Positions 7,182-18,163 of a stretch of 38,317 nt of DNA are shown piece after piece. Source of the DNA: a bacterium (GTDB lineage: Bacteria > Patescibacteriota > Minisyncoccia > Phycocordibacterales > UBA918). Position numbers and translations under genes: made by a program. The stretch is from positions 1-38,317 of the forward strand of contig JAUIFS010000003.1 of NCBI GenBank assembly GCA_030430425.1, in the 5' to 3' direction. The stretch's first letter is position 1. Every line of letters begins with the position of its first letter. The notes below the pieces were generated by a model that saw only the letters and a list, made by a program, of their open reading frames with translations, was not told the DNA's origin and made no database searches.

Positions 7182-7266
7182 GCCCAGGTGGCGAAATTGG
7201 TAAACGCGTACGCTTGAGGGGCGTATGACTTCGGTCTTGCTGGTTCAACTCCAGTCCTGGGCACCA
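7182..7266 (+). tRNA. tRNA-Leu (GAG)
   Basis: GCCCAGG/CCTGGGC acceptor, TACGC-TTGAGGG-GCGTA anticodon arm, long variable arm, encoded CCA. Confidence 0.95.
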
Positions 7267-7306
7267 AAAGAAAAAGTTCGAGGTTCAGCCTCGAACTTTT
7301 TCTTTT
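7266..7306 (+). terminator. Terminator after tRNA-Leu
   Basis: AAAAGAAAAAGTTCGAGG...CCTCGAACTTTTTCTTTT hairpin. Confidence 0.75.
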
Positions 7307-7320
7307 GCTATACTACAAAC

Positions 7321-7767
7321 ATGGAAACAATTAATGACTATTCATTCGGTGTGGTGCCTGTTCAAAAGGTAGGAGATGCATGGAAAGTGTTTCTTATACA
7401 TCAAATACCACGAAGAGGATCTCTCTTTTGGACCTTCCCAAAAGGACACCCAGAAGAAGGGGAAAGTCATGAAGAGACAGCGTTACGTGAGTTGCGTGAA
7501 GAGACAGGGCTTGTTCCTGATATTTTTAAGAAAGATGTAACGTTCACACAAGAGTACACCTTTATACATGATGGTCAGAGTATAGAAAAAAAAGTTGTCT
7601 ATTATTTGGGCGTTATTTCTACTGCAGAGTTTCAAATACAAATTGATGAAATCCATGAAGCGAAGTGGTGTACATTTGCCGAGGCAAGAGTATTATTAAC
7701 TCATGACATCGCGAAGCAGCTTCTGGATGAAGTTGCAGCGTATTTAGCAGATAACAATTCAGTATGA
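7321..7767 (+). CDS. NUDIX hydrolase (Ap4A hydrolase-like)
   Basis: Nudix box FPKGHPEEGESHEETALRELREETGL; start set at METIND after a TATACT box. Confidence 0.9.
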   Translation: METINDYSFGVVPVQKVGDAWKVFLIHQIPRRGSLFWTFPKGHPEEGESHEETALRELREETGLVPDIFKKDVTFTQEYTFIHDGQSIEKKVVYYLGVISTAEFQIQIDEIHEAKWCTFAEARVLLTHDIAKQLLDEVAAYLADNNSV

Positions 7768-7952
7768 AAACAATCACATGCTACGACTGTGAGAGCTCGT
7801 TTCAAGCAGAAACACGCGAAGAGATTCTTGATATTCTCTACGAGCACTATATGAAAAATCATCATAGTGTTATTACTGGCGCTTCAGACGAAGCAAAAAA
7901 ACAGTGGATGGAACAGTTTGAGAAAGACTGGTCTGCAGCTGAAGAAGTGTAA
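7764..7952 (+). CDS. Small metal-binding protein (DUF1059-like)
   Basis: CxxC...AETREE...H...H pattern; coupled to the Nudix stop. Confidence 0.55.
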   Translation: MKTITCYDCESSFQAETREEILDILYEHYMKNHHSVITGASDEAKKQWMEQFEKDWSAAEEV

Positions 7953-7961
7953 AAAAATAAT

Positions 7962-8570
7962 ATGAATACAAAAATAGTAGTACTAATAGGGGTGGCAGTA
8001 GTGGTACTTGGCGGAGGGTATATGCTAATGCAGTCATCAGACACTTCTGGTGGAGATGTCGCAAACAATACAGCACAGGAATCTCTTTCAGAACAGAACA
8101 GCGGCAGTGGTTCATTCCGGTCGCTTATGCAACGAGGTGAAAATATCACATGTACTTTTTCTTCCACTGCAGAAGGATCAGTCTCTAACGGAACATTCTA
8201 CTACGGCGACGGTATGTACCGTGTTGAAGCTGAGACAGAAACAGACGGGGTAACCTTTGTCTCAAACATGATTGGTCTTGCAGATAAATCATACATATGG
8301 GGCGGTACACCAGCAGGTGAGATGGCAGTCGTTATTGCAAATGATACGACTGAGATGGACGAGTCGGTACATGATTTTGCTGATACTCAGCAGGGGAGTG
8401 CGGTTGATCTGGAAGCAGGTGTAGAGTATGAGTGTGATGCATGGCGACCAGTTCCATCAATGTTTGTGCCGCCGAGTGACATTGAGTTTCTTGATATGCA
8501 GGCTATGATGCAAAACATGCCTGGTATGCCTGAAGGGTTTGCATTGCCTGCAGATATGCAAACACCGTAA
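7962..8570 (+). CDS. Hypothetical membrane-anchored exported protein
   Basis: N-terminal TM, CTF...C..W.P..SMFVPP.DIEF pattern. Confidence 0.7.
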   Translation: MNTKIVVLIGVAVVVLGGGYMLMQSSDTSGGDVANNTAQESLSEQNSGSGSFRSLMQRGENITCTFSSTAEGSVSNGTFYYGDGMYRVEAETETDGVTFVSNMIGLADKSYIWGGTPAGEMAVVIANDTTEMDESVHDFADTQQGSAVDLEAGVEYECDAWRPVPSMFVPPSDIEFLDMQAMMQNMPGMPEGFALPADMQTP

Positions 8571-8582
8571 CACTAAACTATT

Positions 8583-8644
8583 CCACGTACCTAAGCGGCA
8601 AAAATGGACGCAATTGCGTCCATTTTTGCCGCTTAGGTACGTGG
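8583..8644. repeat. Perfect 62-bp palindrome between convergent genes
   Basis: 31-nt arm CCACGTACCTAAGCGGCAAAAATGGACGCAA followed directly by its exact reverse complement. Confidence 0.9.
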
Positions 8645-8657
8645 GTTTTGGTATATG

Positions 8658-9065
8658 TTACGAAAATAGTATCGTGCCGAGTAGATAACTGATGGCAGCA
8701 ACGGTAGCAGTGAGTACGGTACCCCAGACGATATCGACAAGTGTGAGTAACAGTGGCCAGTTTCGTATTGTTGCAAGATTGGTTAGGTCGTAGGTTGCGT
8801 ATGCAAAGAATCCAAACAGTGCTCCCCAGAGCACCGCTTTCATGAACGATTGTGCTTCGAGCGCAGGTTGCACCGCAAAGATGATGATACCAACGATGTA
8901 TAAGAGGTAAAAAATAATTGCTGCCGCCCAGTTCACTGGTCCCAGCAAGAAACCAAGTTGTGATTGGTAGAACTTGTTAGCAATGAGACCCAGCCAGAGC
9001 ATATCGATAATAAAAAAGACGGGAATAGTTATGAGGTAGAGATAGGTACGTTGTATGAGTGTCAT
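8658..9065 (-). CDS. DUF2177 family membrane protein
   Basis: IDMLWLG, YATYDLTNLAT, DIVWG motifs. Confidence 0.85.
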   Translation of the reverse strand: MTLIQRTYLYLITIPVFFIIDMLWLGLIANKFYQSQLGFLLGPVNWAAAIIFYLLYIVGIIIFAVQPALEAQSFMKAVLWGALFGFFAYATYDLTNLATIRNWPLLLTLVDIVWGTVLTATVAAISYLLGTILFS

Positions 9066-9067
9066 AG

Positions 9068-9463
9068 CTATATATTAAGATACGTGATTGTTAGTTGAAG
9101 CACCGTTGCAAAGGATACCCATGCTACATACGGTATGTTTATGTACGTCACGAAAGGAACATAGGGATATATTACATACAGTGCCCAAAGCAGTGTTGCT
9201 AACACCAAGCATATATCTATTGCCGCAAGTGTATTATTTTGGAGTCCAAACTGCAGGGGTGTAAACGCAAAATTACATAACAGATTAAGGATAAAAGGGA
9301 GTAGTACTACAAAGGGAATGGTCCCTTTAAAATATAAATAGAAAACGTACCCAAAAGAAACGGCTATGATAGCGTACAGCACACCCCATACTGGTCCAAA
9401 AAGCCATGCTGGTGGTGCCCACGCAGGCTTTATGAGTGTTTGATACCAAGTGTATTGATCCAT
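9068..9463 (-). CDS. tspO: TspO/MBR tryptophan-rich sensory protein
   Basis: WY..LIKPAWAPPAWLFGPVW and PYVAWVSFATVL; start set at MDQYTW. Confidence 0.9.
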   Translation of the reverse strand: MDQYTWYQTLIKPAWAPPAWLFGPVWGVLYAIIAVSFGYVFYLYFKGTIPFVVLLPFILNLLCNFAFTPLQFGLQNNTLAAIDICLVLATLLWALYVIYPYVPFVTYINIPYVAWVSFATVLQLTITYLNI

Positions 9464-9591
9464 TCTTTTTAGTGTAGCATTGTAGGTAGAAAATTTTTCA
9501 ATTTTGAACATCTGGTAGGGAAAAGAAAACACCTCGCATTGTTTGATATACAGTATCTTCATTGCGAGGTGTAGTTGCAGAATATTTGTTT

Positions 9592-10101
9592 TTAGTACGC
9601 ACTTCCACGCATATCACGAGCGGCGTGGTAGGCAGCATTTAATGGCTGCAGAATCAACAGCACACAATAGATTAACCCAGGGAGCGCGACAAACCATAAC
9701 CACTGCGAGTTGTCAGGCTGTTGCTGTCGCAAGAGTTCTATGAGCGCCCTAATGGTAGTAAACGCGCTTTCATGCAGAAAATTTGCCGCTATTTGACTAG
9801 CAAAGTGAGTGCCAAAACTCTCTCCAATGATTAAGAGTACTGCAACCCAGTAGATTATCGGCGCAAGAAGCCCGTACAAGAACGTAAAATTAAAAGCGTC
9901 CCTCCCGTGGCGTTGTGCTGCTGGCTCAGTATGAATAAACCAAAAAAGGAACGGTATTACATACCAAACAATAATAACAAATCCTGCTGTAGCCAAGCTT
10001 GAACCCGTAGGAGTAAAAATAACAACTGCAGATCCCAGAGCAACTAAAAGGTGCATAAGGGCAACGAGTGATGATCTTTGAGTATTTTTGTTACTGGACA
10101 T
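9592..10101 (-). CDS. Hypothetical membrane protein (DUF4870-like)
   Basis: ALMHL, HGRDAFNF motif, several TMs; AAGGAG SD. Confidence 0.55.
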   Translation of the reverse strand: MSSNKNTQRSSLVALMHLLVALGSAVVIFTPTGSSLATAGFVIIVWYVIPFLFWFIHTEPAAQRHGRDAFNFTFLYGLLAPIIYWVAVLLIIGESFGTHFASQIAANFLHESAFTTIRALIELLRQQQPDNSQWLWFVALPGLIYCVLLILQPLNAAYHAARDMRGSAY

Positions 10102-10278
10102 CGCGAAGTCTCCTTGTCAGATGTGAGGTGCTCAATGAACTTTCGTGAGAAAGACCGTTTAAGTTCTAGTCGAACAATACTGAAATATAATATAATGTCA
10201 ACAGAGGAGGGAGAATGAATATTTTGATGATTTTAATGATCAGAAATGGCGGTTTTTTTGTTTGTACTGGCACTTATA

Positions 10279-10392
10279 GGACTGTGTGATATATTCCTCA
10301 CATCAGTCCGCCGTTCGATTCCGGACGAAAGCTATACGCTTTCTTAGTCACCCAAAACACAAAAGACCCCAGAAGGGGTCCGTGTGTTTTGG
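10279..10392. repeat. Relic tRNA-His-type element, distal end of array
   Basis: GTTCGATTCCGG, hairpin 10327-10343, TAGTCACCCA, closing hairpin 10352-10392. Confidence 0.7.
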
Positions 10393-10527
10393 ACACGTAC
10401 TGTCTCTCGAGTGGAGCCAATTTGAAGAATTGTGTCTTGCTTAGCTAAGCGACGCCAGGGTTTGTTTCAGGTGATGAGGGAGAAAGTGGTTCCATTGGGT
10501 CGGTGGGTATGGTGAAGAAGAATACAT

Positions 10528-10556
10528 TTGCTTAATTTTGTACAATATGTACAATA
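10528..10556 (+). promoter_or_regulatory. TA promoter/operator with tandem TGTACA palindromes
   Basis: TTGCTT-16nt-TACAAT; TGTACAATA repeated twice over the -10. Confidence 0.6.
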
Positions 10557-10561
10557 TAGGT

Positions 10562-10813
10562 ATGAAAACTATCACTACTACCAATGCTCGTAAACAAATC
10601 GCACAGCTTATTAATGCTGTGAGGGATACGGGGGATGTGTTTGCAATAGGGCGTCGTAATCGTCCAGAAGTGCTCCTCATAAAATTTCCTGCTGAGTACA
10701 ACAGCGAATTAAATGATATTACAAACGTGAACACCTATTCAGAGAGCTTTTCGTTTTTAGAGAATGAACCAGAGACATATTCAGTAAATGATTTAAAGAA
10801 ACGATATGTATAA
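10562..10813 (+). CDS. Phd/YefM-family antitoxin
   Basis: MKTITTTNARKQIAQLINAV...IGRRNRPEVLL; overlaps the toxin start. Confidence 0.8.
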   Translation: MKTITTTNARKQIAQLINAVRDTGDVFAIGRRNRPEVLLIKFPAEYNSELNDITNVNTYSESFSFLENEPETYSVNDLKKRYV

Positions 10814-11132
10814 GAAAGGGACTATTGTGTTGGTCCCTTTTCCGTTTACCGATTTGTCAGGTAGCAAAGTGCGACCAGCGGTGATTGTTTCTGATGGAAA
10901 GGTTGGGTCTGACGTTGTACTTTTGTTTATCACTTCACAGTTAAAATTAAAAGGGAGACATATTGTCCAAGTCGTTCCAGATCAAGAAAATGGCATAAAA
11001 ACCAAGTCTAAAATAGTTTGTTCTAAAATTGCCACTTTGGAAGCAAAAATCATACTCGGTGAGTTAGGGGTGCTGGCACCACCAGTTTTAAAAAGTATTG
11101 ATATTGAGCTCAAAAAAGTCTTGGGCCTATAA
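10806..11132 (+). CDS. PemK/MazF-family toxin
   Basis: GTIVLVPFPFTDLSGSKVRPAVIVS...ITS motif. Confidence 0.9.
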   Translation: MYKKGTIVLVPFPFTDLSGSKVRPAVIVSDGKVGSDVVLLFITSQLKLKGRHIVQVVPDQENGIKTKSKIVCSKIATLEAKIILGELGVLAPPVLKSIDIELKKVLGL

Positions 11133-11142
11133 CTTTTTATCG

Positions 11143-12023
11143 GGGCGACGTCGTAGATTGAGAAAGTGCGGGGCACTTTTGCAAGAGGTTGCCAGCTGCG
11201 CCTGCAGCGACAACCTGAACAGTCTCTGTATAGAGATGTTCGAACTGTGTTTGAGTAATTACAGGATGAAACTGTTTACATTCCAGTTTTATCTAACTAA
11301 ATTACTTCTGATGATTCAGCAATCTCAAGCATTTCTCTTACGTCTTCATCTTTCAAACACTCCTCTACGTTACTCCATAGTTCAAGGTTAACCTTTGCCC
11401 ATTTTAGGTACGACTGCTTTGCTTTATCAGTGTAGAAATATATTCCACTTTCCATAAGGTGTGTTTGTTCATCACATATTTTATGGGCAAGTTTAGCAAC
11501 ATCTACGTTGTTCTCCTCAATATACTTACTGGCAAATAATATCGGAGTCACTGGCAATGCTTTAAAAAGAGTATCAGCATCACTCAATGCTTTTGACTCT
11601 AGAGAAATATCACCATGTCGATTAGTCGTGCATTCGTCCATTATGATTTTTTCAATTTTCTCTATTTCTTCTGATGAGTAACCAGCTTTTGAAAGAATCT
11701 CCTCTCGCAGACCTTTCCCTGCTTCTGGTTTAGAGTTAGATTCGACAATGTAATTCAAATCATGTACCAAAGCGGCCGACTGAACGAGAAACTCGTTCGC
11801 TCCCAATTCCTTAGCAAATACAATGCTTTTGTTTGTAACAAAAGTGATGTGATGCCATCCATGAAACAACAGTCCATCCTGATGTTGTTGGTATAAGGTC
11901 ACAAGTTGACTTCGCAATTGGTTAATTTTTTCTGTTTCAGACATGATAAGAGTATATCAGTTCGAGCTTCCCATTAGGGTAGCTGTGAGAGCGCTATAAA
12001 TATACTTCAAAATGTTGGGCGAC
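11143..12023. mobile_element. Putative integrase-less cassette A (HD gene) bounded by GGGCGAC cores
   Basis: Cores at 11143-11149 and 12017-12023; both ends homologous to cassette B. Confidence 0.65.
11297..11944 (-). CDS. HD-domain phosphohydrolase
   Basis: FHGWHH, ALVHD, LSDADTL motifs. Confidence 0.85.
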   Translation of the reverse strand: MSETEKINQLRSQLVTLYQQHQDGLLFHGWHHITFVTNKSIVFAKELGANEFLVQSAALVHDLNYIVESNSKPEAGKGLREEILSKAGYSSEEIEKIEKIIMDECTTNRHGDISLESKALSDADTLFKALPVTPILFASKYIEENNVDVAKLAHKICDEQTHLMESGIYFYTDKAKQSYLKWAKVNLELWSNVEECLKDEDVREMLEIAESSEVI

Positions 12024-12192
12024 TACCGGGGTAATCTTTCATTACATGAACTGTACACCTTTTGGCTAGATTGTTTCGCTATGCTCACAATCTATCTCAA
12101 AAGCTTTTCGATTCGCGCAACGCTTTTCAGAGAAAAGTTGCGCCCAGTAGTCGCCCAAATGCAAAAAACTCCCGAAGGAGTTTCTGCATTCA
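12017..12192. repeat. tRNA-His-trailing element between cassettes
   Basis: GGGCGACTACCGGG; inverted TTCGATTC, hairpin 12115-12143, CCAGTAGTCGCCCA; closing hairpin 12158-12190. Confidence 0.8.
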
Positions 12193-12876
12193 GGGCGACG
12201 TCGTAGAGGACGTTCGAACTGTTTTTGAAGAGAGGAATGATACGACTGTCTTTATCCCATTACTGCATAAGGTTGTTTAACTTTCGAACAGTGTTTACAT
12301 TACGAACTGTCATATTCTTATAAATCTCTGTACCAATTATGTCGTTCATCTTGCTTTTTCCATAATCTTTCTTTTTCAAATGCCAGACCACTGCACCGTC
12401 AATATAGAGCAGTGTGTCTACCTTGGGATTTGTAACAATTTTCTTGAGCGTACCTCGGTTTGCAAAACTGTTCCAAAGAAACATAACATCGGTCTTGTAT
12501 TCTTTGTCGTTGATCCAGTCGGCTGGTATCTCCTTATTTACCTTATCTATGCTTTTTTTGCCACGGAGCACAACAGGGATATCAAGTTCAAAATTTTTCT
12601 TGATGGCTCTTTCAATCTCATTAGCTATCTTCGTGGTGTCACTTTTCTTAGTTTCAAAGATTACATTCCCTGAATTTATATAGGTAGCGACATTGGTGTA
12701 CCCAAGTGACTCAAAGCAAATTTTGAGTCTAGCCATTTCTATCTTATTGTTACCGCCAACGTTGATTCCACGAAGAAGTGCGACGTACTTTTGCATACTA
12801 AAAGTATACCAGTTCTACCTTCTCGGTATGGTATCTAGAAAACCCTTATGATACTTACTTCAAAATGCTGGGCGGC
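12193..12876. mobile_element. Putative integrase-less cassette B (DUF1697 gene)
   Basis: GGGCGAC 12193-12199 and GGGCGGC 12870-12876; ends homologous to cassette A. Confidence 0.65.
12260..12796 (-). CDS. DUF1697 family protein
   Basis: YVALLRGINVGG.NKI.M, TYINSGNVIF, T.RN.NTV.KL. Confidence 0.9.
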   Translation of the reverse strand: MQKYVALLRGINVGGNNKIEMARLKICFESLGYTNVATYINSGNVIFETKKSDTTKIANEIERAIKKNFELDIPVVLRGKKSIDKVNKEIPADWINDKEYKTDVMFLWNSFANRGTLKKIVTNPKVDTLLYIDGAVVWHLKKKDYGKSKMNDIIGTEIYKNMTVRNVNTVRKLNNLMQ

Positions 12877-13068
12877 TACTGGGAAGTTCGGTCACGAATC
12901 ACTAAGTATATTGGTTCGTCTTCGACTCCAAATCTACTAAGTGTTCTCGACCCCGACTCATTCGCGGCAAGGCCGCATCATTCCGTCTTTCGATTCCCGG
13001 ACAGAAGCAAAGCAGTTTGCTTCTTTAGCCGCCCCATACGCAAAAATCCCCGAAAGGGGATTTTGCTT
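12869..13068. repeat. tRNA-His-trailing element, proximal
   Basis: TGGGCGGCTACTGGGAA; inverted TTCGATTCCCGG 12989-13000, hairpin 13003-13024, TAGCCGCCCCA; closing hairpin 13040-13066. Confidence 0.8.
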
Positions 13069-13070
13069 TG

Positions 13071-13143
13071 GGCGACTACCGGGAATCGAACCCGAACTTC
13101 CGGTACCACAAACCGGAGCACTAACCGTTATACTATAGTCGCC
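13071..13143 (-). tRNA. tRNA-His (GUG)
   Basis: G-1:C73, GCGACTA/TAGTCGC acceptor, CCGGT-TTGTGGT-ACCGG arm, TTCGATT loop. Confidence 0.95.
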
Positions 13144-13240
13144 ATACAGCAGTATATAAAATACCGTGTGCGCATATTTATACCTATTTTTAGTACAAAT
13201 GTCGAGTATTTTCTTGTGTGAATGCGCTACAATATTGTAG

Positions 13241-13330
13241 ATGCAAGGCGAAGGACTACAAGCAGCGATATTCCTCACATTTCTGTTAGGATGTGGTGTT
13301 GGTTTTTATCTTGCTAAGTTTATTCTTTAA
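13241..13330 (+). CDS. Possible 29-aa single-TM small protein
   Basis: MQGEGLQAAIFLTFLLGCGVGFYLAKFIL; TACAAT 7 nt before ATG. Confidence 0.35.
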   Translation: MQGEGLQAAIFLTFLLGCGVGFYLAKFIL

Positions 13331-13445
13331 ATGTATCCGCTTAAGCGGTATCTTGACAGCATAAAAAGTTATTATGTCGCTCTAGAGAGCGATTTTTTGT
13401 AGTATACTCAAATAAATTTATTTATATAATAATTTGCATATTTTT

Positions 13446-13835
13446 ATGAAAGGATTTATCGAAGAGTTCAAAGCGTTTGCGGTAAAAGGAAACGTGATCG
13501 ATCTCGCCGTAGCAGTAGTTATTGGAGCTGCATTTGGGAAGATTGTTTCTTCTCTTGTTGAGAACATCATCATGCCATTGGTGGGTGTGCTCCTGGGAGG
13601 AGTGAGTTTTGCTGGTATGACCTACCAGGTAGGTGATGCGATGATCACCTACGGCGTGTTCATCCAAGCTGTTGTAGACTTTGTTATTGTTGCGTTTGTT
13701 ATCTTCATGGTAGTGAAGGCACTCAATAAAATGCAAGAAGTAGGGAAGGAAGATGAGGCTACAGACGATACTCCTGAAGAACCTTCAGAAGAAGTGAAGC
13801 TGCTACGAGAGATTCGCGACAACCTTCGCCGATAG
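13446..13835 (+). CDS. mscL: Large-conductance mechanosensitive channel
   Basis: EFKAFAVKGNVIDLAVAVVIGAAFGKIV, LLREIRD. Confidence 0.96.
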   Translation: MKGFIEEFKAFAVKGNVIDLAVAVVIGAAFGKIVSSLVENIIMPLVGVLLGGVSFAGMTYQVGDAMITYGVFIQAVVDFVIVAFVIFMVVKALNKMQEVGKEDEATDDTPEEPSEEVKLLREIRDNLRR

Positions 13836-13875
13836 GCACACTGTAGGCGTAATAAAGAAAGGCTGTGACGTTTCG

Positions 13876-14379
13876 TCACAGCCTTTTCAGCTCCGGTGGA
13901 AGCTTTTTTGTGGTGAGCGCCTCTTCAACCAATCCATATACTGTCGAGTCGGGAAGCTCCATAATAAGAGAAAGCTCGTCAACCAAACGTGCGGTTGCTT
14001 CTTCAGCAAGCTGTAGGTTGGCGTACGATCGCTCCTCTCCCTCAGGGACGAATAGGTTGCACACAAGCTGTGTCAGCTCACTGATCACACCACTGGTGAG
14101 TTTTGCATTGTGGAAGCGCTGTACTTGGTGCGGATACCCACGCACTTTCTTGCGATTTGCAATGAGTTTTTGCAGCGCCTGTTCCATCGCTTTCTTTGTG
14201 GTGATCTCACGGAGAGACTGATTGTCTAGTGGTACGTGTACGGTCATCTGTTGTCGCGCAAACCAGATGCGATACATTGGTTGCACGGCTCCGTTAACGG
14301 TACTTGTTTCAATTGATTGAACGGTGCCAACCCCATGAGCAGGGTAGATCACCGTATCTCCAGGTGAAAAAGGTCTCAT
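13876..14379 (-). CDS. CarD/CdnL-like transcription regulator, divergent
   Basis: F.PGD.VIYPAHGVG.V..IE N-terminus; AAGGAG SD before ATG 14379. Confidence 0.8.
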   Translation of the reverse strand: MRPFSPGDTVIYPAHGVGTVQSIETSTVNGAVQPMYRIWFARQQMTVHVPLDNQSLREITTKKAMEQALQKLIANRKKVRGYPHQVQRFHNAKLTSGVISELTQLVCNLFVPEGEERSYANLQLAEEATARLVDELSLIMELPDSTVYGLVEEALTTKKLPPELKRL

Positions 14380-17768: not shown

Positions 17769-18163
17769 AAAGTTCTGGGAGACCTTTTTAGGGCCTTGCC
17801 TGGTATTTCTTGAAAACTTAGAAAGAAATATCGACAAGATTGAAACTGGGAGTTTCAGAAGGTTGCCAGCTGCGAATGCAGTGACAATCTCTACTGAACT
17901 TGTAAAGTTTTTAGTCCCTCTAATAAGGGAAACTAAGTTTTCTACAGGTGTCACGTAATACTCTTTGAGGATACGGTATACTGGTAAACATACGAGAAAG
18001 AGGTATCTATCCGGGATTGTGAGACGCGACTTGCAGTCCCCGCTAGGTACCTCTTTTTCTATCTCTGTAGGTTGCAGGAGGTAACGGTGTACACTTGGCA
18101 TTTTTTCAGACAAGAGTACAATAACCACACAAAATAATTACAATCGTTTAAGGAATCATTACT

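Follow-up and report, generated by a model that had tools for sequence, protein, structure and literature searches.

How do two genes with nothing in common come to lie between nearly identical ends, one behind the other, at the 3' end of a tRNA gene? The locus that raises this question occupies positions 10,279 to 13,143 of a 38,317-nt stretch of Patescibacteria DNA (contig JAUIFS010000003.1, referred to here as the window). In plus-strand coordinate order, from low to high, it consists of a relic element, a toxin-antitoxin (TA) pair, unit A, a structured element (E1), unit B, a second structured element (E2), and tRNA-His. The answer that we consider likely is that the array grew by accretion, as elements with a large serine recombinase (LSR) inserted site-specifically, one after another, at the last bases of tRNA-His. 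A preliminary description, made from the letters of this DNA, had proposed an integrase-less array of single-gene cassettes, integron-like and moved in trans. Its anatomy holds up well. The coordinates of tRNA-His, the TA pair, the units, E1, and E2 confirm the order; the lengths given for the units, 874 bp (core 11143 to core 12017) and 677 bp (core 12193 to core 12870), are exact when measured core to core; and the two unrelated genes do have homologous ends, with the proposed consensus strings correct to the letter. The left arms share an 18-nt repeat at 94% identity (11140-11157 versus 12190-12207), and the right arms share a 28-nt repeat at 89% (12003-12030 versus 12856-12883) and about 85 nt at 73% (11947-12030 versus 12799-12883). 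A right-arm pattern finds two matches in the window's own genome (G000) and none for a reversed control. The repeats of both arms are beyond chance. As for the gene labels, DUF1697 stands for gene B, while the HD label of gene A is weaker than stated, its 21.1 bits falling below the Pfam cut-off of 22.

What, then, are the arms? Judged by sequence comparison, the left arm consists of the final ~30 codons of an LSR gene, the distal scar of an insertion at the core TGGGCGAC. Left arm B, read on the plus strand, gives GDVVEDVRTVFEERNDTTVFIPLLHKVV followed by a stop codon and ends an open reading frame (ORF; 12062..12280) that tblastn matches at 83% over 24 residues; left arm A is matched by tblastn with an LSR C-terminal fragment at 11235-11291. 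The link to the enzyme comes from relatives (G-numbered genomes are members of the same Patescibacteria genus). In G014, an LSR fragment ORF of 97 aa runs from ..NAQYAELILSW through ..LILSWGD/VVEDVRTVFEERND.. without a break, the slash marking the junction, and yields the same peptide as the left arm. The N-terminal part of this ORF is found by tblastn in G022, where it runs into tRNA-His antisense. The G022 gene is an ORF of 553 aa that encodes Resolvase, Recombinase, and Zn-ribbon domains (L027 5891-7552); its closest solved relative is the A118 integrase, a serine enzyme, and its junction with tRNA-His reads ..LILTWGD/YRESNPN... When the 97-aa fragment was searched against a database, 32 LSRs were found, of which five possess the tail (four of 559-568 aa and one of 447 aa), reading ..LILSWGDVVEDVRTVFEKLNDTTIYIPEF.. 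and matching the left arm of the window. Integrated LSR genes thus end ..WGD/YRESNP.. in tRNA antisense, whereas uninterrupted genes read ..WGD/VVEDVRTVFE... Since integrated ends are antisense to the tRNA and full-length LSRs with the tail exist, the phage-type attachment site, attP, would lie inside the 3' end of the LSR gene itself. On integration, a tail of ~30 residues (..DVVEDVRTVFE..IYIP.F..; P0002-P0008) is swapped for 15-17 residues of tRNA-His antisense; the free and integrated forms of the enzyme would accordingly differ in protein sequence, which may amount to a built-in switch.

This arrangement recurs among relatives. LSR orthologues of at least 70% identity abut tRNA-His antisense in 4 of the 61 genus genomes searched (G022, G072, G063, and G001, the last with two stop codons), and LSR fragments are present in G014 and G043. 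Among wider relatives of at least 53% identity, the LSR gene ends at a tRNA-His encoded on the other strand in 20 of 23 loci, and all 15 readable LSR-His ends finish ..W/G at the core. The tail that is lost from the integrated gene is present at the far ends of the islands in G022 (~14.5 kb) and G001 (~10.6 kb). By-eye reading of the G022 island products suggests a DNA methyltransferase, an ABC efflux set, and a TetR-type regulator. When all 128 genus genomes are scanned with a left-arm pattern, 64 matches appear in 33 of them, against 2 for the reversed control, and the first ~35 nt of the arm are near-invariant, wobble positions included. The preliminary description had suggested searching with each arm for other cargo and for recombinases carrying the same arms. 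The former search succeeds, leading to tRNA-His-anchored arrays with diverse cargo; the latter succeeds for the left arm, found in the tailed LSRs, while the right arm of the type seen in the window (the F type) occurs in no long ORF or database protein. The description's term "integrase-less" is correct in that neither the units nor the genome holds such a recombinase, G000 having no match to PF00239, PF07508, or the G022 LSR; it misses that the left arm is itself LSR coding sequence and that relatives carry the gene. With no serine recombinase in G000, its array should now be fixed, and the window units can be at most recombinase-less members of LSR islands.

Of 27 more distant LSR relatives (31-43% identity, L078-L107), 16 have at their end either a different tRNA, on the opposite strand, or a tmRNA gene; the tRNA is Asn in eight, with Gln, Ser, Ala, Gly, Trp, and Tyr also represented. 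A closer relative, L073, ends at tRNA-Glu. The LSR superfamily, drawn mostly from Patescibacteria records, therefore appears to be one that targets tRNA ends with a predicted attP in its own 3' end.

Where exactly does the exchange take place? The end of tRNA-His forms the core TGGGCG(A/G)C, and these 8 nt are all that the cassette units have in common with the tRNA; GGGCGAC had already been recognized as the tRNA acceptor 3' end and now doubles as the recombination core. To the left of GGG, the sequence varies with the neighbor. The left arm invariably has GGCGAC beside it, also when the tRNA of the genome reads GGCGGC, and because the A moves with the tail, the exchange is placed within TGGGCG. 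A unit common to G127 and G049 (93% identity, 2.0 kb, carrying an ECF sigma factor and a DUF5667 protein) aligns from ~6 nt before GGCGAC, and further upstream the two genomes are unrelated. We read this alignment edge as direct comparative evidence of insertion at the core.

In the proposed mechanism, attP of the LSR elements lies within the LSR gene 3' end, and crossover at the shared core would fuse the LSR body to tRNA antisense and move the last ~30 LSR codons to the opposite end of the insert. Every GGGCGAC-GTCGTAGAGGAYGTTCGAAC.. of the window would then mark one insertion as its distal scar. As new inserts enter beside the tRNA, the age order should run, oldest to newest, from the TA pair to the HD unit to the DUF1697 unit. 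The window units would be derivatives without a recombinase, in which the core, the LSR tail, and a conserved right arm have been retained; most likely they arose from islands of 10-15 kb by loss of the LSR and other genes, and an LSR, if present, might still be able to move them. The relic, E1, and E2 would be separate, gene-less modules, inserted at the tRNA end between LSR events, each bringing a terminator and leaving a 16-nt pseudo tRNA end. The features concerned are located in Table 1.

Table 1. Features of the tRNA-His locus (window coordinates)
Feature	Position	Strand	Remarks
Relic E-type module, right end alone surviving	10301..10389		Inverted tRNA-His-end copy with inserted hairpin 10301-10354; bidirectional terminator hairpin 10355-10389
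Possible third degenerate core and left arm (tentative)	10390..10440	+	TGGACAC, then tail-like ..FEE..
Type II TA pair, cargo of oldest unit	10562..11132	+	Phd/YefM 10562-10813; PemK/MazF 10806-11132
Core GGGCGAC of unit A	11143..11149		Putative crossover region; equals tRNA-His acceptor 3' end, reverse complement
Left arm A, putative displaced C-terminal LSR coding tail	11150..11291	+	GDVV.. / ..DVRTVFE(stop)LQDETVYIPVL; split by 77-nt structured insert 11158-11234
Cargo gene A, 215 aa, weakly HD-like	11297..11944	minus	ORF; Pfam HD 21.1 bits, E 3.9e-4
Right arm A (F type)	11945..12016		AGTATATC, CAGTTCGAGC..TAGGGTA, ..CTTCAAAATGTTG
Element E1	12016..12192		Pseudo tRNA-His 3' end 12016-12031; core hairpin ~12035-12118; inverted tRNA-end copy 12143-12157; terminator hairpin 12160-12189
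Core GGGCGAC (12193-12199) and left arm B	12193..12280	+	LSR tail GDVVEDVRTVFEERNDTTVFIPLLHKVV(stop); overlaps gene B 3' end
Cargo gene B, DUF1697, 178 aa	12260..12796	minus	Pfam 1.2e-41
Right arm B (F type)	12797..12868		TATACT 6 nt before gene B ATG
Element E2	12869..13066		Pseudo tRNA-His end TGGGCGGCTACTGGG 12869-12883; core ~12888-12959; inverted end copy 13026-13036; terminator hairpin 13040-13066
tRNA-His (GTG)	13070..13142	minus	Putative bacterial attachment site attB, last bases = core; ARAGORN, and Rfam 57.1 bits

How typical is the window of its relatives? Nine further arrays were compared, and the sequence before each of their 37 cores was sorted by eye. All cores of a locus have one orientation, and arrays contain 2 to 9 cores, the maximum of nine being that of G129, whose array also encloses an LSR with Resolvase, Recombinase, and zinc-ribbon domains all present, as in the G022 enzyme. 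Before the core lies an F-type right arm, as in the window, in 12 of the 37 cases, a hairpin-bearing arm in 13, the right end of an E module with its terminator in 9, the LSR ORF itself in 1, and other sequence in 2. The 31 units that were measured range from 0.6 to 8.2 kb in a continuum of sizes; 25 are shorter than 2.3 kb, and 14 have one ORF and no recombinase. Cargo is varied: 16 of 30 proteins have Pfam matches, to unrelated families (PurD, PyrF, TauE, EamA, VTT/DedA, Fic, aminoglycoside-nucleotidyltransferase-like, GNAT, DUF4419, ECF sigma with DUF5667, EEP nuclease, FAD oxidase, DUF3800, and two weak matches), and 14 have none. Different species almost never have cargo in common. The units of the window do have some kin: a 71%-identical copy of the HD unit lies beside tRNA-His in G024, the DUF1697 unit is also in G020 with a shortened left arm, and a related DUF1697 gene (65% identity) is in the G021 array. 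No tyrosine recombinase is found at any array examined, whereas LSR genes are present.

The right arm seems to contribute something quite different, namely, a promoter. TATACT stands 6 nt before the ATG of both gene A and gene B on the minus strand, as the preliminary description had read from the sequence, and in right arm A it forms part of an extended -10 box, TGnTATACT. In all, the F arm meets at least seven unrelated minus-strand genes at a single fixed boundary, and each of them has its ATG 6-9 nt from the same TGnTATACT. The cargo is probably transcribed from this box as leaderless mRNAs. A scan for sigma-70 consensus promoters, in which both hexamers were required, did not call the right-arm -10 boxes and found 5 sites versus 6.8 expected. 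By a by-eye estimate, F-type arms are 75-85% alike. Where do right arms come from? There are slight hints that some may be decayed LSR 3' ends: several of the hairpin-bearing type end ..ATTCTCnnTAG, like LSR ..ATTCTCACTTGG, and by eye the F arm shares GTACCCAGAA and GTTCG with the LSR 3' end. When flanks were compared with LSR 3' ends by pairwise local alignment, only 3 of 39 reached z of at least 3.2, all of the hairpin or "ATTCTC" type. The idea that the right arm is an inverted repeat of the left arm was rejected as a general rule (4 of 44 flanks at p<=0.01).

Another class of components in these arrays is the gene-less structured elements, which the preliminary description took to be parts of the cassette system that restore the terminator or target after each insertion. 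By the distribution of their copies, E1, E2, and the relic are instead members of a dispersed family of tRNA-end inserts, independent of the cassettes. In the window, E1 is supported by the inverted repeat I1/I2 and the direct repeat D1, and E2 by D1, I4, I6, and I10. In G000, the E1 core matches eight places and the E2 core two; across the genus, E cores occupy many places per genome, the E2 core at 85-97% identity, and metagenome contigs show further E2-core copies in other contexts, as loose ends. Where a copy lies behind another tRNA, it has the 3' end of that tRNA in direct and in inverted form, and E cores are also found at sites with no cassettes. Comparison of G019 or G014, which have no E, with G020 or the window reveals a clean insertion of ~175 nt with a tRNA-end duplication of 16-17 nt. 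The 16-nt tRNA-His 3' end (reverse complement) occurs in three copies, at 12015, 12868 (81%), and 13068, of which those at 12015 and 12868 belong to E modules. The core hairpin covaries, with at least two Watson-Crick types at 10 of 21 pairs among eight copies; G-U pairs (4 versus 3) are uninformative as to its strand, and Rfam has no family for the structured elements, either at gathering score or at E<=5. The window tRNA and E1 carry GGCGAC, and in E2 both the pseudo tRNA end and the inverted copy read GGCGGC (12869-12883 versus 13069-13083), the tRNA-His variant of, e.g., G019, so the probable source of E2 is a lineage that has this second tRNA-His allele. The relic shares a 22-nt repeat (86% identity) with E2 (10301-10322 versus 12976-12997), and its terminator-like hairpin at 10364-10381 is called on both strands.

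A third structured repeat family interrupts left arm A at 11158-11234, just before GTTCGAAC; it consists of a hairpin, GCAAGAGGTTGCC..GACAACCTGAACAG, and a second hairpin, ..CTGTAAG... This family occupies seven places in G000, lying, besides left arm A, on contigs C42, C36, C8, C38, and C27 and at window positions 17860-17890. The C27 copy is flanked by a tRNA on one side and by a duplicate of that tRNA's T-loop-to-3' end on the other, the C36 copy comes after a tRNA 5' fragment, and the one in G004 comes after tRNA-Leu. Copies of this family behind other tRNAs show the pattern of direct and inverted tRNA 3' ends known from the E modules. It has no Rfam match in the window. The only tyrosine recombinase in G000 is a 317-aa open frame with a Phage_integrase domain on contig C25 (C25:27590-28111); it is presumably Xer-like and is the sole remaining site-specific recombinase of this genome that could act on the gene-less tRNA-end modules.

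Does the array extend further back than unit A? The TA pair is well supported by Pfam (PhdYeFM_antitox 2.1e-7, PemK_toxin 1.5e-11), and before it lies the tentative third scar. Within the ORF at 10286..10444, about 6 of 13 residues agree by eye with the LSR tail, and part of the G001 array matches 10398-10494 at 83.5% identity; against its being a scar, a tblastn search with the LSR tail gives no match there. An exact 13-nt direct repeat, ATATTCCTCACAT, at 10291-10303 (the left edge of the relic) and 13268-13280 (just upstream of tRNA-His) brackets the array, although it may be a chance occurrence, about 0.1 such pair being expected in 3.4 kb by rough estimate. The distance from tRNA-Leu(GAG) to tRNA-His (window 7182-13142) is 5.8 kb here, 1.3 kb in G004 (L029), and 10.5 kb in G020. 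Given this variation, accretion that predates the recognizable scars may account for everything between the two tRNA genes, the DUF2177, TspO, and membrane-protein genes at 8658-10101 included.

How did units as small as one gene arise? Loss of genes in place is the single account that we find most plausible, though it falls a little short of being probable by itself; genuine cassettes mobilized in trans are less likely than that, and mixtures of the two make up the remainder. Decay would explain why the newest, tRNA-proximal inserts in G022, G001, and G128 are full islands and the older ones short, why LSR genes are found with stops or as fragments, and why the G127/G049 unit has different right ends; the continuum of unit sizes, the weak likeness of some right arms to LSR 3' ends, and the lack of any serine recombinase in G000 point the same way. 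In the competing account, which we rate as a minority view deserving attention, single-gene circles composed of left arm, gene, and right arm are captured in trans at the tRNA-His core by a serine recombinase; the composite of right arm, core, and left arm would be the cassette recombination site, with the right arm providing the promoter. Several observations speak for it. The commonest unit is the single gene, cargo is almost never common to species, the start of the left arm is near-invariant even at wobble positions, and in ~12 of 37 junctions the F arm keeps its one boundary beside different cargo. Set against these are, in addition to the full islands nearest the tRNA, the G127/G049 unit, which keeps left arm and cargo with differing right ends and so did not move whole with both arms; tail types and right-arm types that, in our own reading, do not co-vary within units; and the unlikeness of the F arm, beside the core, to the LSR's own P arm. 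Movement in trans, as the preliminary description had it, is not supported either by sequencing runs. DNA runs that contain the window sequence number 11, in 4 studies, with no RNA runs; contigs of four runs (2 studies), compared over 9000-14000, repeat the window junctions (gene A-F-E1, E1-left arm B-gene B, and gene B-F-E2) and contain no circle or empty-site joint, at a depth of ~3 and in contigs that cannot show rare forms. Would reads across the proposed circle junction settle the matter? They would not prove circles, since right arm-core-left arm is an ordinary chromosomal junction wherever two units abut, as in G129, G087, and G014, and is therefore nondiagnostic. Several observations nevertheless weigh against LSR-driven accretion followed by decay. 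(i) An F boundary that is the same beside at least seven unrelated cargo genes is poorly explained by independent deletions. (ii) F arms have no significant likeness to LSR 3' ends (z<=2.7) and differ beside the core from all 15 LSR-His alleles read. (iii) No LSR with an F-type end is found: a frame encoding the F peptide as an LSR C terminus reaches at most 127 aa in the 128 genomes, and no longer database protein was found, which is weak evidence. (iv) The LSR gene of the G129 array has recombinase-less units on its newer side. (v) Canonical LSRs do not recombine attP with hybrid sites, and arrays need reuse of the tRNA end irrespective of its neighbor. The absence of a circle or empty site from the contigs, within the limit given, belongs here as well. 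Another route, a tRNA-His copy carried on the islands and then homologous deletion, was set aside, no second tRNA-His being present in the scanned parts (L027, the first ~6 kb of the G022 island from tRNA-His, and L028, the far end of the G001 island).

Could the array do without an LSR altogether? The preliminary description implied cassettes that insert independently of an integrase through GGGCGAC alone, with the structured elements rebuilding the terminator or target. It is true that, with an E module in place, tRNA-His is followed at once by a terminator and its end is present in an extra copy, and that the right end of an E module precedes 9 of 37 cores. We nevertheless hold this reading to be very improbable: the left arm is recombinase coding sequence, which contradicts recombinase independence, 28 of 37 cassette junctions have no E, and, as described above, E cores are dispersed, sit behind other tRNAs with matched ends, and occur at cassette-free sites. 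Least probable of all is a tRNA island array made by a tyrosine integrase or Xer-type enzyme whose att sites are the arms. The C25 gene and the tRNA-end direct repeat of E modules, 16-17 nt and typical of tyrosine-integrase islands, would fit such an enzyme, but what the cassette units have in common with the tRNA is the 8-nt core and no long 3'-end repeat, the arrays examined have LSR genes where this reading would want a tyrosine recombinase, and the LSR gene explains the junctions base for base. Insertion driven by an LSR is thus the reading that we retain.

How does such a locus compare with known systems? The nearest is the family of ssrA islands in Dehalococcoides. There, a CcrB-like LSR of ~540 aa, DsiB, lies at the island edge with its 3' end overlapping attP/attL, so that the integrated recombinase gene reads into its target; insertion is in the 3' part of a tRNA-like gene, and several islands follow the tmRNA gene in series, those that lack an integration module being termed "cis-mobilizable"; the recombinase is suggested to be complete only on the circle or with the 3' fragment of a neighboring island (McMurdie et al. 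2011, PMC3146451). The two systems are alike in having an LSR at the target (here, in relatives), attP in the LSR 3' end, and tandem recombinase-less members; moreover, among the LSR relatives found here, one lies against a tmRNA gene and one, 39% identical, is from a Dehalococcoidaceae record. They differ in the target, tRNA-His (other tRNAs in sister clades), and host, Patescibacteria; in the shared core, 8 nt here versus a 20-bp direct repeat in ssrA islands (PMC3146451); and in the often single-gene units of 0.6-1 kb, the conserved right arm with its promoter, and the interleaved gene-less modules. Nothing resembling the six-gene integration module described for ssrA islands (DsiA, ParB, Mom) was seen beside the G022 LSR, whose neighbors were not run through Pfam.

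Staphylococcal cassette chromosome (SCC) elements of staphylococci and enterococci use Ccr serine recombinases to insert at the 3' end of a conserved gene, form tandem composites, and include recombinase-less pseudo-SCC that a neighbor's enzyme can move. LSR-driven 3'-end insertion, tandem arrays, and recombinase-less members are therefore common ground. Unlike the units described here, SCC target rlmH (orfX), are kilobases to tens of kilobases long, have attP outside the recombinase gene, and are not known to include single-gene units with common arms. Prochlorococcus tycheposons are reportedly tRNA-anchored integrative elements of streamlined genomes, several kilobases long, with varied recombinases and replication genes, that pile up in arrays including cargo-only remnants; tRNA-anchored arrays with such remnants are the point of likeness, and we know of no shared recombinase-tail scar or single-gene format described for them. 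A displaced tRNA 3'-end repeat of the Islander type, typically at least 15 nt, was not found at the far island end for cassette units.

What about integrons, to which the preliminary description likened the array? Integrons consist of the integrase IntI, its site attI, and gene cassettes with attC sites. Like them, the arrays have mostly single, unrelated, promoter-poor genes between a recurring recombination element, the newest beside the anchor, with diverse cargo and recombinase-less arrays among them. They differ in using a serine rather than a tyrosine enzyme, a tRNA 3' end rather than attI as anchor, and recombinase coding sequence rather than a folded attC, and each minus-strand cassette appears to have its own promoter instead of relying on Pc. 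No IntI-type recombinase was found beside the array, the sole Phage_integrase-domain gene of the genome being the one on C25, and none occurs in the arrays examined; attC-like sites between units were not found either (inverse-arm test 4/44, Rfam none), though no dedicated attC search was made. With the left arm recognized as an LSR tail, the recombinase becomes identifiable, and the system belongs with serine-recombinase islands and not with integrons. A Patescibacteria counterpart of the integron is nonetheless conceivable. In this speculative and rather unlikely scheme, LSR clades tuned to particular tRNAs or tmRNA would capture single-gene circles, stockpile them behind the tRNA, and have them expressed from cassette-borne leaderless promoters; the site would be a miniaturized LSR 3' end (right arm, core, and tail), with the gene-less tRNA-end modules as its empty form. 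Literature searches, made outside supplements, found no account of serine-recombinase cassette arrays in Patescibacteria. What appears to be new is (i) the tRNA-His target in this group, (ii) single-gene miniaturization with shared arms and a built-in promoter of leaderless type, (iii) the interleaving with gene-less tRNA-end modules, and (iv) the breadth of the LSR superfamily across tRNAs and tmRNA.

Overall, the ultrasmall genomes of Patescibacteria, or the Candidate Phyla Radiation (CPR), are thought to have few routes of gene gain, and this locus is a hot spot at which unrelated accessory genes would be added serially behind a tRNA. In relatives, these include purine and pyrimidine enzymes, transporters, Fic proteins, nucleotidyltransferases, sigma factors, and toxin-antitoxin pairs. 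The responsible enzyme family, LSR, can now be named, and its tail left as a scar is a simple, searchable marker for mapping arrays and their cargo, as in the 33 of 128 genomes of one genus. The LSR superfamily, abutting many tRNAs and tmRNA, is a candidate mover for tRNA-end arrays and modules. If the single-gene units prove mobile, they would constitute a second, mechanistically independent platform for cassette capture, and the origin of cassettes would become experimentally approachable.

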